A stretch of DNA of 8,851 nucleotides from a virus (lineage: Duplodnaviria > Heunggongvirae > Uroviricota > Caudoviricetes). This document shows, one piece after another, positions 20 to 8,851 of this stretch. The notes under the pieces were generated by a model, which saw only the letters and a list, made by a program, of their open reading frames with translations, ran no database searches and was not told the DNA's origin. Made by a program: the position numbers and the translations under genes. Positions within the stretch are counted from its first letter, which is position 1; each line of letters opens with the position of its first letter. The stretch lies in IMG/VR virus record IMGVR_UViG_2713896791_000021; one strand, 5' to 3'.

Positions 20-1300
20 TTAACTTTTCATCGCTTCGTTATGGGGCATGGTTGGGGCAAACTCGCTTAACTGTGTATTTAACAGCGTTACCTGCGCATT
101 ATTATTTTCTGACATCCATTTCCCGTACACCTGAAACACCATTTGCGCATCTGCATGGCCCATCTGGTTTGCAATGAATGCCGGGTTAGCTCCTGCTGTT
201 AACGACCAGCAGGCATAAGTGTGTCTCGACTGATACGATTTGCGATGGCGGATTCCGGCACGCTTTACCGCTGCGTCCCACATCTGCCTTATTGAGTCAA
301 CGGTAAAATGGTCACCATAATTTTTTACTTTCGCTGACACTTCAGGTTGAAAAACAAAGGTACATTTTTGTTTCTCTGTTCTGCCGAATTCTCTGAGGTG
401 AACATCGATGATATGCTCTTTGCTCAGTCTCGTTAGTGCCATCTGACTCCGGAGAGCGTCGATTGCGGGATTAATAAGGTGAATCACACGATTGGTTCCC
501 GCCTGTGTTTTTGGTACTGTAAAACGGTCTTTTGCCAGATTTCTTCTGATTATCATTGTTCCATTTTTCAGATCTATATCTTCCCATCCAAGCGCACACA
601 GTTCACCAGGGCGAATCCCAGTATAAACGGAAACACACCATAAATTTTTGGCTTGCTGATTTCTGCACGCGTCAATAAGGCGGATAAACTCCTCCCGCGA
701 AAGTGGATCCGGGATGGTTCTCGACTCCTTTAATGGTGAGATCCCCTTAAATGGATTGTTTGCCAGATAACCGTTATCAACACCAAACTGGAACACGGCG
801 TAAAGATTTGTCATGTAATTATTTACGGTAACAGCCGATCTCCCTGGTTGTGTAACAATATAGTTACTTTTGGGGATCTGGTATCCAGTCAGTAACTCTT
901 TACGTACCGCCAGCAATTTTTCTTTATTAATCGATGATGCAAGATTTTTTTCACCGATTATGCTCAGAATATTTTTGATGACGGCACGGTACGTGTTGAG
1001 TGACGTTTTTGCGACTTCAGTTTCTTTCAGTGCCAGAAATTTTTCAGCCAGTTCTTTTATGGTTAAATCTTGTCGGGCCTCACCAAATTTTTCCAGATTG
1101 TGTGAGGCGGGAAACTGTTTTGCATAGTCGAAAGCGCCAGTTTTTATTGCGTAACAAACAGAGGCGCGTAGCTCACCTGCAATGCGCCTGTTTTTTGCTG
1201 TGTCAGGAACCCCAAGATTTTCCCGGACTCTTACACCTTTATAAACAAACCAGATACGTAATTTCCCTCCATGGTTTTCCACGCCTGTCGGATATTTCAT
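20..1300 (-). CDS. int: Phage tyrosine integrase (lambda-family site-specific recombinase)
   Basis: ORF 20..1315 (-), 431 aa. N-terminal arm-binding-like segment (MKYPTGVENHGGKLRIWFVYKGVRVRE); catalytic-domain residues in the expected order (R in VYTGIRPGE, H/R in QSRHTYACW, H in GHAD, nucleophile Y in QVYGKW). Start placed at the second ATG (1298-1300, preceded by GAGAGAAG); the first ATG at 1313-1315 has no SD-like sequence, so the 5' end is uncertain by 15 nt. Confidence 0.9.
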   Translation of the reverse strand: MKYPTGVENHGGKLRIWFVYKGVRVRENLGVPDTAKNRRIAGELRASVCYAIKTGAFDYAKQFPASHNLEKFGEARQDLTIKELAEKFLALKETEVAKTSLNTYRAVIKNILSIIGEKNLASSINKEKLLAVRKELLTGYQIPKSNYIVTQPGRSAVTVNNYMTNLYAVFQFGVDNGYLANNPFKGISPLKESRTIPDPLSREEFIRLIDACRNQQAKNLWCVSVYTGIRPGELCALGWEDIDLKNGTMIIRRNLAKDRFTVPKTQAGTNRVIHLINPAIDALRSQMALTRLSKEHIIDVHLREFGRTEKQKCTFVFQPEVSAKVKNYGDHFTVDSIRQMWDAAVKRAGIRHRKSYQSRHTYACWSLTAGANPAFIANQMGHADAQMVFQVYGKWMSENNNAQVTLLNTQLSEFAPTMPHNEAMKS

Positions 1301-1334
1301 TTCAGCTTCTCTCATTGGTTCGTGTTGCTTTTAG

Positions 1335-4550: not shown

Positions 4551-4590
4551 NNNNNNNNNNNNNNNNNNNNNNNNNNNNNNNNNNNNNNNN
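4551..4590. other. Assembly gap (run of 40 N)
   Basis: 40 consecutive N characters. The flanks are the 3' side of dicF and the 5' end of dicB, so the true length of the dicF-dicB spacer is unknown. Confidence 0.99.
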
Positions 4591-4607
4591 NNNNNNNNNN
4601 TCACAAA

Positions 4608-4664
4608 ATTCACTTTAAAAAGGGCGGCAGAGCAGTCACGGAGTAAAACTGATACCGCCAAATG
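4608..4664 (-). ncRNA. dicF: DicF small regulatory RNA (Hfq-dependent sRNA targeting ftsZ and other mRNAs)
   Basis: Minus-strand sequence UUUCUGGUGACAUUUGGCGGUAUCAGUUUUACUCCGUGACUGCUCUGCCGCCCUUUUU matches my recollection of DicF at all but about one position. It ends in a GC-rich stem (GGCGG...GCCGCC) plus U-run intrinsic terminator and sits between ydfC and dicB as in Qin. Confidence 0.8.
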
Positions 4665-4926
4665 TCACCAGAAAATTGATAACAGAGGGCGTTGTAGCGG
4701 GGTTGTCACTTAAGTGTATGGTCAACCTGACAACCCGGTGCATTTTCTGGAGCAATGGAGGAAACCCCAGCCATACTTACCGCCGCGCCATTTCGCGGAC
4801 TGCCACAACCGGAAGCGCACGGTCGACGAAAATTTAACGACAGGCTATCTATGAACCAGCTACCTCGCCGTACGCTTTCGCGTTGTGTGCCTGCTTTTAA
4901 CCACGTCAGGCGAGGTGGTTCCTGTT

Positions 4927-6315: not shown

Positions 6316-6723
6316 TTATTTGTTTGCGCTTCTTTTGCGAGCTTTAAGTAGTTCTTCAAAAAGTTTGTTGAAATTTTCAACTCGAGCACGCATCTCTGAC
6401 AACAGGGCCTTTTGCTCTGAGTCAGGCAGTGCGTCGAACAGTTGAAGTAACTCTTTTTGATCTTCTGTCAGAATGGCTGGCTGATTATTCGGGATCGGTT
6501 CGCCTGGTTGTTTATCTTCATCCCCAAAAAGAAGCCAAGTCGGTGAGCACTGAAGCGCTTGGCTCAGTGCGAATAATCTTTTCCCCGCCGGCTGTGTTTC
6601 ATCTCTTTCCCATTGAGAAATTGTTACGTGAGCCACTTTGACCAGCTTACCTAATGCGGCCTGAGACAGTTTTAATTTTTTACGCCTATGTAAGAGGCGA
6701 GCACCGAAGGTTTCGTTTTTCAT
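6316..6723 (-). CDS. dicA: Prophage repressor DicA (XRE-family HTH, cI/C2 functional analogue)
   Basis: 135-aa product with HTH (LKLSQAALGKLVKVAHVTISQWERDETQP) and CSPTWLLFGDEDKQP resembling K-12 DicA; divergent from the cro-like gene. There is no SD, and a TAGAAT box ends 8 nt before the ATG, consistent with a leaderless, PRM-like transcript. Confidence 0.9.
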   Translation of the reverse strand: MKNETFGARLLHRRKKLKLSQAALGKLVKVAHVTISQWERDETQPAGKRLFALSQALQCSPTWLLFGDEDKQPGEPIPNNQPAILTEDQKELLQLFDALPDSEQKALLSEMRARVENFNKLFEELLKARKRSANK

Positions 6724-6799
6724 ATTAGGGAATTCTAATTTTTCTTGACTTAGGTTTCTCTACGATCTAGTTTCCTTAGGAAAATCTAAGGAGCTCGAT
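6724..6799. promoter_or_regulatory. Divergent immunity-switch region (OR-like): dicC promoter, dicA promoter and operator-like inverted repeats
   Basis: Plus strand: -35 TTGACT (6745-6750), 17-bp spacer, -10 TAGTTT (6768-6773), then AAGGAG SD (6788-6793) for dicC. Inverted repeat TCCTTAG-N5-CTAAGGA (6773-6791); ATTAG-N6-CTAAT (6724-6739); TTAGG/CCTAA half-sites repeated. Confidence 0.55.
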
Positions 6800-7027
6800 A
6801 TGTTGAAAATTGATGCTATAGCGTTTTTTGGCAGCAAAACAAAGCTTGCCAATGCCGCAGGAGTTAGGTTGGCAAGCATTGCTGCATGGGGGGAACTGGT
6901 TCCTGAAGGTCGCGCGATGCGCCTGCAAGAGGCATCCGGCGGGGAACTTCAGTACGACCCCAAAGTTTATGACGAATATCGTAAGGCAAAGCGGGCGGGG
7001 CGGTTGAACAATGAAAATCACCCCTGA
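6800..7027 (+). CDS. dicC: Cro-like regulator DicC
   Basis: 75-aa product MLKIDAIAFFGSKTKLANAAGVRLASIAAWGELVPEGRAMRLQEASGGELQYDPKVYDEYRKAKRAGRLNNENHP resembles K-12 DicC (recalled). Strong SD AAGGAG 6 nt upstream; divergent from dicA. Confidence 0.85.
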   Translation: MLKIDAIAFFGSKTKLANAAGVRLASIAAWGELVPEGRAMRLQEASGGELQYDPKVYDEYRKAKRAGRLNNENHP

Positions 7028-7562
7028 ACAGGTTTGTGAGGCTCTGGATGCCTGGGTATGTCGACCAGGAATGACACAGGAGCAGGCGACGATATTAATC
7101 ACGGAAGCATTCTGGGCTCTGAAAGAACGCCCGAACATCGATGTTCAACGCGTCACGTTTAATGATGGCGAGGTTGATCAACGGGCGCTGGGCGTTAACC
7201 GGGTGAAGATATTCGAACGCTGGAAAGCTATCGACACCAGGGATAAGCGGGAAAAATTCACGGCGCTGATTCCGGCAATTATGGAGGCTATCCGAATTAG
7301 TGATTTCAGGTTGTATCGTGAGATCAGTGATGGAAAAAGCATTACGTACATGATCGCCGGATTAAACAAAGAATATGGCGATGTGGTGGAGTCCGGGCTG
7401 CTTTTTGCGGATCCAGCTGTTGTGGAACGTGAGACTGACGAGCTTATAGAAAAAGCTATTGCTTTCAAGCATGCGTATCGTCAGCAATATCAATATTACT
7501 TTGCAGATAAACAAATATCTGCCAGGGGTTCGTATGAGTATCGATGCACTACGATGGGCTAA
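7011..7562 (+). CDS. YdaT-like protein (Rac YdaT family; proposed CII-like regulator, also reported as toxic on overexpression)
   Basis: 183-aa ORF directly after the cro-like gene. The motif RWKAIDTRDKREKFTALIPAIMEAIRISDFRL parallels recalled Rac YdaT (RWLKGETKTQREKIQKLIPAILAILPRELRHRL). Overlaps dicC by 17 nt and the next gene by 29 nt. Confidence 0.7.
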   Translation: MKITPEQVCEALDAWVCRPGMTQEQATILITEAFWALKERPNIDVQRVTFNDGEVDQRALGVNRVKIFERWKAIDTRDKREKFTALIPAIMEAIRISDFRLYREISDGKSITYMIAGLNKEYGDVVESGLLFADPAVVERETDELIEKAIAFKHAYRQQYQYYFADKQISARGSYEYRCTTMG

Positions 7563-8574
7563 AAAGGTGAAAACCGGCAGTTCATCCAGTAAGTCTGTAT
7601 TGACCTGGCTTGCTGATATGTGCGGTGCCGATTTGTGTGCATACCCGTCTGTATCTGCACTGGCAGAAGTAACGGAACTGAACAAAAAGACTGTGCAGGA
7701 CAGCTTACGACACCTGATGGAGATTGGGTTAATTGTTGATACCGGTGAGAGAAAAGGCAGAACAAAGCAAATTGTGGTGTACCGACTTATCGGTGTAGAA
7801 GAAAGTGTTGCCGAGCCTGAATACACCCAAAAACGGGTGTCTTTAAAGGTGGGTAAAATTGGTGCTGTTAATAAAAACAGTACCGAAAACGGTTATGTTT
7901 CAGCACAAAAGAGCCCCAAAAACGGAACTCTTTGTTGCATGGAAAATAACCAAAGACACCCAAATTTTCCATCAAAGACACCCAAAAACGGATCACGGAA
8001 CCCAAAGGAACCCAAAGATCTAAACCCCACACATAACGCACGCGAGAGTGCTCCGACCAGTGAGCAGGAAGTTTTGTCGTTACAGGCAGTCCCCCCTGTA
8101 TTCCTGGATGGCCTGAGCGAACCCATCGGAAAATTTCCGATGACCGATAACTGGTATCCGTCACGGGATTTTCGACGACGGGCTGCGTTGTGGGGGATGG
8201 CTTTGCCGGAGACAGAATTCACACCTGCTGAACTTGCCGCATTCCGGGACTACTGGGCAGCGGAGGGGAAAGTGTTTACGCAGGTTCAGTGGGAGCAGAA
8301 ATTCGCCCGTCACGTAAATCACGTCAGGGCGCAGGTTAAACCAGTCAGCAAGGGGGTAAACCATGCAGCAGCACCAGGTGGAACCGCATCACGGGCAGTT
8401 CAGGAAATTCGGGCAGCACGTGAGCAATGGGAACGTGAAAACGGATTTATCAGCGACGGAAACGGCCTGGAAGCTGTGGGAGCTCATGGGGGAGGTTTAT
8501 TCGAACCGCTGGACCCAGAAGAACGGGGCCGCACCTTCGAAGCTCTGGATTGCACAGATTGGCGCGATGACTGA
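7534..8574 (+). CDS. Replication initiator, O-like (N-terminal HTH DNA-binding domain, iteron-encoding linker, C-terminal DnaT-like domain); 3' end as sequenced is probably extended by a frameshift
   Basis: Track ORF 7459..8574; start set at ATG 7534-7536 (MSIDALRWAKK...) with AGGGG 5 nt upstream. N-terminal HTH (SVSALAEVTELNKKTVQDSLRHLMEIGLI); low-complexity K/N/P linker encoded by iteron-like repeats; C-terminal segment FPMTDNWYPSRDFRRRAALWG...FTQVQWEQKFARHV. See the finding on the G5 run at 8352-8356 for the likely true end near 8359. Confidence 0.7.
   Translation: MSIDALRWAKKVKTGSSSSKSVLTWLADMCGADLCAYPSVSALAEVTELNKKTVQDSLRHLMEIGLIVDTGERKGRTKQIVVYRLIGVEESVAEPEYTQKRVSLKVGKIGAVNKNSTENGYVSAQKSPKNGTLCCMENNQRHPNFPSKTPKNGSRNPKEPKDLNPTHNARESAPTSEQEVLSLQAVPPVFLDGLSEPIGKFPMTDNWYPSRDFRRRAALWGMALPETEFTPAELAAFRDYWAAEGKVFTQVQWEQKFARHVNHVRAQVKPVSKGVNHAAAPGGTASRAVQEIRAAREQWERENGFISDGNGLEAVGAHGGGLFEPLDPEERGRTFEALDCTDWRDD
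7914..8017 (+). repeat. Iteron-like direct repeats inside the O-like gene (putative phage replication origin)
   Basis: CCCAAA core at 7915, 7958, 7981, 8001 and 8011. CCCAAAAACGGA occurs twice (7915-7926, 7981-7992), CAAAGACACCCAAA twice (7951-7964, 7973-7986), and GAACCCAAAG is tandem (7998-8007, 8008-8017). Related CCGAAAACGG at 7883-7892. Position inside the initiator gene mirrors lambda ori within O. Confidence 0.5.
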
Positions 8575-8851
8575 GCAGCAAATCCGGCAGGTCTGCCGCC
8601 AGTGCATGGACTGCTGCCGGGCGGGTGAAACATGGCCTCCGGACCTGGCTGAGTTTGTGGCGCTGATTTCGGAAAGCGGGGCCAATCCATTTGGTCTGAC
8701 GGTGGATGCTGTGATGGAGGAGTACCGCCGCTGGCGCAATGAGTCCTGGCGATACGACGGAAGTGATAAGTACCCGTGGTCTCAGCCTGTGCTGTATCAC
8801 ATTTGCCTCGAGATGCGTTCAAAGGGGATTGAACGCCAGATGACCGAAGGG
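8363..8851 (+). CDS. Replication protein P-like helicase loader (5' part; continues beyond window end)
   Basis: Frame open from 8318 to the window end. ATG 8363-8365 is preceded by AGGGGG and a 6-nt spacer. The translation ...AWKLWELMGEVYSNRW...SKLWIAQIGAMTEQQIRQVCRQCMDCCRAGETWPPDLAEFVAL...YPWSQPVLYHICLEMR parallels lambda P (recalled: ...RRQWVLAFRENGITTMEQV...PSPGQFVAWCRE...YPWKSNAHYWLVTNLYQNMR). Alternative starts are ATG 8486 and ATG 8567, the latter overlapping the O-frame stop as ATGACTGA. Confidence 0.55.
   Translation, partial: MQQHQVEPHHGQFRKFGQHVSNGNVKTDLSATETAWKLWELMGEVYSNRWTQKNGAAPSKLWIAQIGAMTEQQIRQVCRQCMDCCRAGETWPPDLAEFVALISESGANPFGLTVDAVMEEYRRWRNESWRYDGSDKYPWSQPVLYHICLEMRSKGIERQMTEG

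Follow-up and report, generated by a model that had tools for sequence, protein, structure and literature searches.

Do the short repeats inside the replication initiator gene of an Escherichia coli prophage mark its origin of replication? The origins of lambda, of Stx phages, and of phages P22 and L are iteron arrays located inside the initiator gene, with a specificity that is exchanged in modular fashion (PMC7466680, PMC8022706). We analyzed the virus record IMGVR_UViG_2713896791_000021, a stretch of 8851 bp (hereafter the window), which covers the early region of a lambdoid prophage of E. coli and includes the gene of a replication initiator. An earlier examination of the letters alone (the sequence-only reading) had proposed that an iteron cluster at 7883-8028, within this gene, marks the probable origin. 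Our analysis indicates that the interval 7819-8016, inside the gene of the initiator itself, is probably the iteron array of the prophage replication origin. This initiator is a new, experimentally uncharacterized case of the well-known lambdoid arrangement in which the origin lies in the initiator gene, and in our literature search we came across no experiments on the origin used by this initiator family, nor on oriJ of the Rac prophage at the sequence level.

An array of 22-bp sites in the initiator gene

The array consists of five 22-bp sites, starting at 7819, 7875, 7908, 7952, and 7974, and of two tandem units of GGAACCCAAA that follow them (Table 1). The sites share the consensus AAAGACACCC-AAAAAC-GG and are spread over 177 bp, with start-to-start spacings of 56, 33, 44, and 22 bp; the last three, which separate sites 2 to 5, are multiples of 11 bp. 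The hexamer CCCAAA is found on the + strand at 7915, 7959, 7981, 8001, and 8011, with a sixth copy at 7826, and the exact 11-mer CCCAAAAACGG occurs at 7826, 7915, and 7981. Longer identities are also present: CCCAAAAACGGA starts at 7915 and 7981, and GAACCCAAAG is found in tandem at 7998 and 8008. All scores quoted for sites were obtained with a weight matrix built solely on the six repeats of EPP-1, an Edwardsiella phage. Site 1 scores on both strands (+, 25.3; -, 18.4), has an AAAGAC-type flank on its right arm, and is read as TQKR in frame 1. Site 2 has two mismatches relative to the 11-mer and is collinear with an EPP-1 site. Site 5, the last canonical iteron, is overlapped by a GATC at 7991-7994.

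The clustering of these repeats far exceeds random expectation. Over both strands of the window, CCCAAA occurs 12 times for an expected 8.0, six of the copies being found within 191 bp on one strand; given the expectation from window-wide shuffles, five copies in 146 bp have a Poisson probability of ~3e-7. The 11-mer is observed three times for an expected 0.01, and none of 200 shuffles reached three copies. With the EPP-1 matrix, the eight top matches in the window, both strands considered, are all within 7819-8025, and three of them score 25-27.5, when the maximum in 100 shuffles was 18.5. A chance origin of the repeats is ruled out by these shuffle statistics. In the 25 kb around Sp9, a prophage of E. 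coli O157 Sakai, the matches are essentially confined to the initiator gene, and this matrix revealed no second iteron cluster either in the window or in these 25 kb.

The array lies wholly in linker-coding DNA, between the HTH_36 match and the DnaT domain of the initiator described below. Every statement that the sequence-only reading made on the letters was borne out here. It had counted at least five copies of CCCAAA in 7883-8028, and we found the five, together with the two copies of CCCAAAAACGGA and the tandem GAACCCAAAG; the linker peptide that it quoted is present in the 7534-8574 reading frame; and the placement of the cluster in a low-complexity linker between a helix-turn-helix (HTH) and a C-terminal domain agrees with the Pfam limits and with predicted local distance difference test (pLDDT) values below 50 over amino acids 89-195. 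Its coordinates do hold the cluster, although the array starts upstream of them: they miss site 1 entirely and catch site 2, which also begins upstream, only in part.

Beside the iterons, we observed a perfect 9-bp inverted repeat, ATGGAAAAT at 7939-7947 and ATTTTCCAT at 7964-7972, whose right arm overlaps the variant site 4. Similar A-run and T-run arms were seen by eye around the penultimate site of two relatives (L016 and L018; L numbers designate the compared sequences).

The initiator combines a predicted winged helix with a DnaT-like domain

The initiator matches the PHROG family phrog_1032, "replication initiation protein" (E 4e-91), and its RefSeq name is "DnaT-like ssDNA-binding domain-containing protein", where ssDNA stands for single-stranded DNA. 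We used an AlphaFold model built on 26 sequences to delimit its parts. The N-terminal domain is predicted to have a three-helix-plus-wing arrangement, with helices at residues 3-11, 17-30, 40-47, and 51-64, and strands at 67-74 and 80-85; block-mean pLDDT is 55-84 over residues 1-90. The HTH_36 profile (PF13730) matches residues 36-67 with 20.9 bits, which is under the Pfam cutoff of 25, and the N-terminal homologues score above this threshold (30.5 bits for EPP-1, whose N-terminal domain is 72-75% identical, and 41-47 for more distant ones). In a structure search with the full-length model, the neighbors of this domain were proteins of the winged-helix type, among them the Rep-DNA complex of a plasmid (5kbj), with marginal values (E ~0.01).

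For the C-terminal domain, which is modeled with confidence, profile and fold agree in assigning it to the DnaT ssDNA-binding domains. The Pfam profile DnaT (PF17948) matches residues 201-267 (E 2.5e-17, 62.8 bits for a cutoff of 25), the DnaT chains of the Protein Data Bank (6aep, 4ou6, and 9zbt) match the domain with E between 1e-18 and 1e-19, and Foldseek aligns 6aeq_A to it with a target-normalized template modeling score of 0.90 and a root mean square deviation of 1.0.

The N-terminal domain and the array are inherited as a unit

EPP-1 and prophages of Plesiomonas, Edwardsiella, and Serratia encode N-terminal domains with 69-75% amino acid identity to that of the window (tblastn). The EPP-1 group has a collinear array of the same iterons, but an unrelated C-terminal domain (Phg_2220_C). 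The correspondence extends to the variant site: EPP-1, L018, and L020-L024 all have an AATTTT or GTTTTT variant as their penultimate site, 22 bp ahead of the last one. Prophages of Scandinavium, Enterobacter, and Kluyvera have both the DnaT-type C-terminal domain and the array. Finally, E. coli genes that are 85-92% identical in nucleotide sequence from 8014 or 8021 onward, i.e., in the C-terminal half, carry DUF1376 (as in Rac YdaU) or one of two other N-terminal domains. YdaU of Rac-SA53, the sole gene with another N-terminal domain examined for repeats, has no such array.

These exchanges share one boundary. The BLAST matches to genes with other N-terminal domains start at query position 481 or 488, which corresponds to 8014 or 8021 in the window, and the similarity to EPP-1 stops at the same AGATCT. 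Since the array co-occurs with the N-terminal domain across swaps of the C-terminal domain, the inherited unit is the N-terminal domain plus the array, ending at AGATCT. Hence, as in origins of the lambda type, the DNA-binding domain and the iterons are co-inherited as a specificity module. The AGATCT itself is found at the junction in three architectures, namely winged HTH with DnaT, winged HTH with Phg_2220_C, and DUF1376 with DnaT (also L001 ~2984-2990 and L002 ~2494-2500). In these alignments, it has the appearance of a joint at which modules for replication specificity and for loader interaction have repeatedly recombined.

More distant homologues (35-50% identity) have their own repeats of 21-24 bp at gene nucleotides 260-500, the same position in the gene. 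The comparison included homologues of Burkholderia, Acinetobacter, Vibrio, Moraxella, Edwardsiella, and the E. coli phage phiV10. The repeat unit is a 22-bp AACAGTCCCAAA in Burkholderia Bcep176 and AATGAACCCAAA in Acinetobacter AP22; it spans 24 bp in Vibrio phage Her, phiV10, and Edno5, and 21 bp in Moraxella Mcat8. A second type of short tandem repeat, AACCAGTCATAT in three copies or AGAACCAGTCAT in two, is found after the iterons of phiV10 (nucleotides 409-445), Her (470-495), and Edno5 (370-410), in a position that matches that of the two GGAACCCAAA units of the window. Such short repeats may represent a conserved post-iteron element.

Changes in the iterons may also follow changes in the protein. 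When L016, L017, L019, L004, L025, and L026 are compared with the window, L001, and L020, the recognition helix DRKTVLA(G/N) is found with GTCCC..GGGAC iterons in Enterobacter and Scandinavium prophages, and also in Burkholderia and Pandoraea, and the helix N(K/V)KTVQ(D/S)S co-occurs with CACCC..GGGTG iterons. With few lineages to compare, this is only suggestive of a half-site that tracks the recognition helix, perhaps as a readable specificity code.

The repeats could in principle be the binding sites of another protein, for example a YdaT/CII-like product or a host factor, and a YdaT-like gene is indeed always adjacent to the initiator gene in the E. coli alleles. However, the array and the N-terminal domain are also found with different upstream genes (in EPP-1, Bcep176, AP22, Her, and phiV10), the half-site appears to follow the helix of the initiator, and the region 7400-8700 has no match to the DnaA-box (TTWTNCACA) or to the IHF consensus. 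We regard this explanation as very unlikely.

Conservation of the repeats at the DNA level

The repeats are located in coding DNA, and one may ask whether they are the by-product of a linker peptide, PKNG or PENG, that the protein needs. Among 50 CCC cores in 11 genes, 36 are read as (P/T)(K/E)NG, and the linkers of distant homologues repeatedly contain PKNG-like peptides as well. Yet, the 14 other cores are read as xQKR or xRKR, and in the gene of the window alone the CCC core appears in all three reading frames. Between relatives, the orthologous last site is not read in a constant frame, as it encodes TPKNG in the window and PQKR or TQKR in EPP-1-type genes. Furthermore, the repeats of Bcep176, which have a 22-bp period, yield no peptide repeat, and the linker is predicted to be disordered. 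The peptide explanation was rejected on reading-frame grounds, and we consider it extremely unlikely. In the N-terminal domain, third codon positions are only 35-47% identical between genes, whereas nine of ten comparisons of the site-1 26-mer give 73-88% identity. Judging from these sequences, conservation is acting on the DNA and not on the protein.

DNA stability and allelic variation

Several observations weigh against placing the origin at the array, and they concern the sites, the stability of the DNA around them, and the variation between alleles. As regards the sites, only site 1 has a full dyad; sites 2-5 retain one arm and AAAACGG, and site 2 is weak. As regards stability, there is no clear AT-rich unwinding tract next to the last iteron: the segment 7980-8040 is average (nearest-neighbor free energy, dG, of -54 to -59, for a gene mean of -55.6), so that the window allele lacks the tract that follows the last iteron in origins of the lambda type. 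The least stable 40 bp of the gene are instead at 7840-7879, where dG is -47.3 (window mean -54.1, standard deviation 4.0; z = 2.5, with the minimum at gene nucleotide 310).

The comparison with relatives nevertheless points to the DNA that follows the array. In lambda, our control, as well as in EPP-1, in a Kluyvera prophage (L018), in Edno5, and in Bcep176, stability over the whole gene is lowest in the 40-mer directly after the last iteron. In the window, the top strand of 7994-8036 is rich in A and C (A20 C15 G5 T3). By position and by analogy with these genes, the region of unwinding or loading would most likely be the stretch from the tandem GGAACCCAAA units to ~8035 (7996-8035), with 7840-7879 as an alternative candidate. 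The lowest stability near the gene is found upstream of the initiator start, in the 3' end of the YdaT-like gene (7476-7525; 40-mer dG -44.4, z ~2.4), and this segment could be either a translation-initiation region or an alternative unwinding site.

The latter possibility has a consequence for the role of the array. The repeats could be genuine initiator sites that serve in autoregulation, copy-number control, or handcuffing, with unwinding and initiation taking place elsewhere, for example at the AT-rich segment 7476-7525 or beyond the window. That the lowest stability is found at this segment and not in the iteron flank fits such a role, as does the precedent of plasmids, in which iterons also act in control (PMC4980987, PMC6090056). 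However, the position of the least stable 40-mer in lambda and in the four relatives argues against it, the recombining module ends right after the array, and the EPP-1 matrix revealed no second cluster in the window or in the 25 kb of Sp9. We consider a purely regulatory role unlikely.

The alleles of E. coli provide the third set of observations. The replication gene of the window shares 98% identity with that of PPompW prophages, and 97.9% with ECs_1768 of Sp9, which also carries the array. In this gene, the window differs from Sp9 (L029 15235-16275) at 22 unevenly distributed positions: the N-terminal domain (285 bp) has one of them, the interval 7838-7935 (sites 1-3) has seven, 7936-8089 has none, and the other 14 are elsewhere. 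The substitutions observed among E. coli alleles fall inside sites 1-3. In addition, two alleles (L027 and L028), from E. coli and, according to the database name, from Shigella dysenteriae, have an exact in-frame deletion of 66 bp between the copies of CCCAAAAACGGA (7915-7980), by which two sites are lost and whose left end is site 3. In the allele of strain 7_15_5C (L012), the loss of 10 bp, i.e., one GGAACCCAAA unit (7997-8006), leads to a frameshift, and the gene is annotated as a pseudogene. So either not all sites are strongly constrained, or the prophages are decaying. In line with the latter, PPompW prophages have been described as defective in late functions (PMC8112680). The sole indirect experimental datum in favor of an origin is that Sp9, which has the array, scored positive for circularization and replication (PMC2669165, Table 2), but the score comes from quantitative PCR of circular forms, which were fewer after mitomycin C than in untreated cells (PMC2669165).

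Taken further, decay would make the array neutral low-complexity DNA, produced by slippage or unequal recombination in a degenerating prophage, an idea that the 10-bp and 66-bp losses and the defective PPompW prophages agree with. But the array is collinear and conserved across genera in which synonymous sites are near saturation, and it is also found in the isolated phage EPP-1 and in E. coli at large, where full-length alleles occur in 907 of 5426 complete genomes. We give hardly any credence to a neutral array. The E. coli alleles are themselves ~98% identical, and so little variation is insufficient to reveal purifying selection acting on the sites. No variation affects sites 4-5, the tandem units, or the junction, either between the window and Sakai Sp9 or in four other aligned E. 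coli alleles. This suggests that, at the sequence level, the distal pair (sites 4-5) is the core of the array. A passage of PMC7466680 that cites earlier work gives the two AT-proximal iterons as the core in lambda.

A model for initiation

Binding, unwinding, helicase loading, and origin activity are here inferred from the sequence, and the following steps would account for them. The N-terminal winged helix would bind the five 22-bp sites, probably as a dimer at the dyad of site 1. The bound initiators would then form a nucleoprotein complex resembling the "O-some" of lambda, which would bend and stress the A-tract-rich DNA. The neighboring DNA would open, most likely from 7996 to ~8035 or, alternatively, at 7840-7879. 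Finally, the host DnaB would be recruited jointly by the DnaT-like domain of the initiator and by the P-like product of the downstream gene.

Comparison with known origins and initiators

The closest parallel is ori-lambda, where the annotated iterons are also mid-gene, in the part of O that codes for the linker between domains. The sites of both systems have a C-rich arm, an A-tract with AAAACG, a G-rich arm, and one AAATT-type variant. The sequence-only reading was right to see a lambda flavor in the repeats: lambda has tccctcaaaacgaggga and a caaattggggg variant, and the window acacccaaaaacgggtgt and a cccaaatttt variant. In lambda as in the window, specificity resides in a module made of the N-terminal domain and the iterons, while the C-terminal half has as its partner a P-type loader encoded immediately downstream. 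The number of iterons varies between alleles in the family of the window and in the lambda/Stx type (PMC7466680), with Stx-phage variants that have six. There are also differences. The C-terminal domain of our initiator is DnaT-like and not lambda-O-like, the full dyad is restricted to site 1, the last site of this allele is not followed by a marked AT-rich tract, and the starts of the four lambda sites are 20-24 bp apart when the spacings in the window reach 56 bp.

Qualifying the initiator as "O-like", as was done earlier, is thus justified by analogy of function and architecture, but not by membership in the Phage_rep_O family (PF04492), for which the initiator has no Pfam match at E <= 0.01. 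Homology between its N-terminal family and the N-terminal domain of lambda O was not established (hhalign probability 7.5%, E 0.0047), and the two proteins are linked only by common weak matches to PHROGs 678 and 345, "replication initiation O-like". The central proposal, that iterons in the initiator gene mark the probable origin as they do in lambda O, agrees with all the comparative evidence, namely the co-inheritance of domain and array, the conservation across frames, and the family-wide repeats, and also with the P-like neighbor.

Gene 18 of P22 and L resembles our case in encoding distantly related origin-binding initiators that have their own repeats in the coding region and are exchanged module-wise (PMC8022706). 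The repeats are different (TGTCCAACGGA in phage L), and the partner is a DnaB-type helicase instead of a P-type loader. Iteron plasmids of the RepA/pi/RepE type differ in having DnaA boxes and AT-rich 13-mers, whereas the flank of the array in the window is made of C/A-rich 10-mers.

RepA_N-family plasmids carry iterons inside the rep coding sequence. Their initiators (staphylococcal RepA-DNA, 5kbj/4pql) are the closest initiator-type neighbors of our winged-helix fold, at E ~0.01 and 17-19% identity; they belong to plasmids and not to phages, and both their host range and their C-terminal domains differ. The DnaT of E. coli (primosomal protein I) shares the three-helix domain PF17948, with 54-57% identity between our domain and the solved DnaT domains, but lacks an iteron-binding winged helix and functions in PriA-dependent restart. 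The ydaU gene of Rac-SA53 has a C-terminal half with ~90% identical DNA and differs in its DUF1376 N-terminal domain and in the lack of an array.

The prophage early region

The features of the window are listed in Table 1. At the integrase end, the window has no 25-mers in common with Sp9, and is therefore a mosaic relative of this prophage and not Sp9 itself. The helicase-loader gene lies directly 3' of the initiator gene, as expected for an origin of the lambda type; it matches Phage_lambda_P in Pfam (E 2.2e-9) and phrog_109, "P-like helicase loader" (E 1.9e-33). The start codon of the initiator falls within the YdaT-like gene, 29 bp from its 3' end (7534-7562), and the start of the P-like gene (8567) overlaps the stop codon of the initiator (8572-8574). 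These overlaps on both sides suggest translational coupling along the operon. No sigma-70-like promoter and no intrinsic terminator was found at 6600-8851.

Rfam matches nothing in the initiator region, and its sole match in the window is the antisense small RNA DicF, the cell-division-inhibitor RNA of Qin/Rac-type prophages. Just upstream of it, positions 4551-4600 are exactly 50 N, reflecting an assembly gap or masking, and the open reading frames (ORFs) that cross this run are unreliable.

Table 1. Coordinates of the repeat array, of the initiator gene, and of neighboring features in the window
Feature	Position	Strand	Evidence or remarks
Site 1	7819-7844	both	full dyad ACACCCAAAAACGGGTGT = ACACCC-AAAAAC-GGGTGT at 7823-7840
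Site 2	7875-7896	+	degenerate copy AAACAGTACCGAAAACGGTTAT; matrix 11.8
Site 3	7908-7929	+	AAAGAGCCCCAAAAACGGAACT; matrix 26.6; exact 11-mer at 7915
Site 4	7952-7973	+	variant AAAGACACCCAAATTTTCCATC; matrix 12.6; 22 bp upstream of site 5
Site 5	7974-7995	+	AAAGACACCCAAAAACGGATCA; last canonical iteron; matrix 27.5 (top score); exact 11-mer at 7981
Two tandem GGAACCCAAA units	7997-8016	+	
Module junction	8014-8021		AGATCT at 8016-8021; BLAST match starts
Least stable 40 bp of the gene	7840-7879		between sites 1 and 2; 33-35% G+C
Replication initiator gene, 346 amino acids	7534-8574	+	ORF
Predicted N-terminal winged-helix DNA-binding domain, residues 1-88	7534-7797	+	AlphaFold model
Disordered linker, residues 89-195	7798-8118	+	pLDDT <50, block means 24-33; holds the whole repeat array
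DnaT-like three-helix ssDNA-binding domain, residues 197-267	8122-8334	+	Pfam, PDB, Foldseek
Lambda-P-like helicase-loader gene, 5' part	8567-8851	+	continues past the window end
YdaT-like gene	7011-7562		
P22-Cro-like gene	6800-7027		
DicA/CI-like repressor	6316-6723	-	
DicF antisense small RNA	4622-4673	-	Rfam RF00039, 77 bits for a gathering score of 48
Integrase	20-1315	-	the window also has an excisionase gene and a large exonuclease-containing ORF

Implications for lambdoid prophages

The finding leaves the understanding of lambdoid replication unchanged. A bolder proposal is that these genes define an uncharacterized class of lambdoid replicon, made of an iteron-reading winged helix, an origin-bearing linker, and a DnaT-type domain, and including the melting of C/A repeats and a specificity code. 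We find it doubtful as a whole, with some chance of being correct. If it were, a single polypeptide would recognize the origin and capture the melted strand before the handover of DnaB by P, and C/A-rich tandem repeats would melt, making a classical AT-rich element unneeded. The association of TVLA with GTCCC and of TVQxS with CACCC might then let origin specificity be read across thousands of prophages.

The module is common. Its full-length E. coli alleles include those of Sp9 of O157 Sakai and of the PPompW prophages that host Stx2a phages, and Enterobacter, Klebsiella, Salmonella, Edwardsiella, and more distant Proteobacteria have related versions. It is a clear-cut case of predicted DNA-binding sites that are written into the coding DNA of a disordered linker and can be read in any frame. 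The location of the putative origin gives a target for the study of prophage replication, of the in situ amplification of flanking virulence genes, and of the incompatibility between co-resident prophages.

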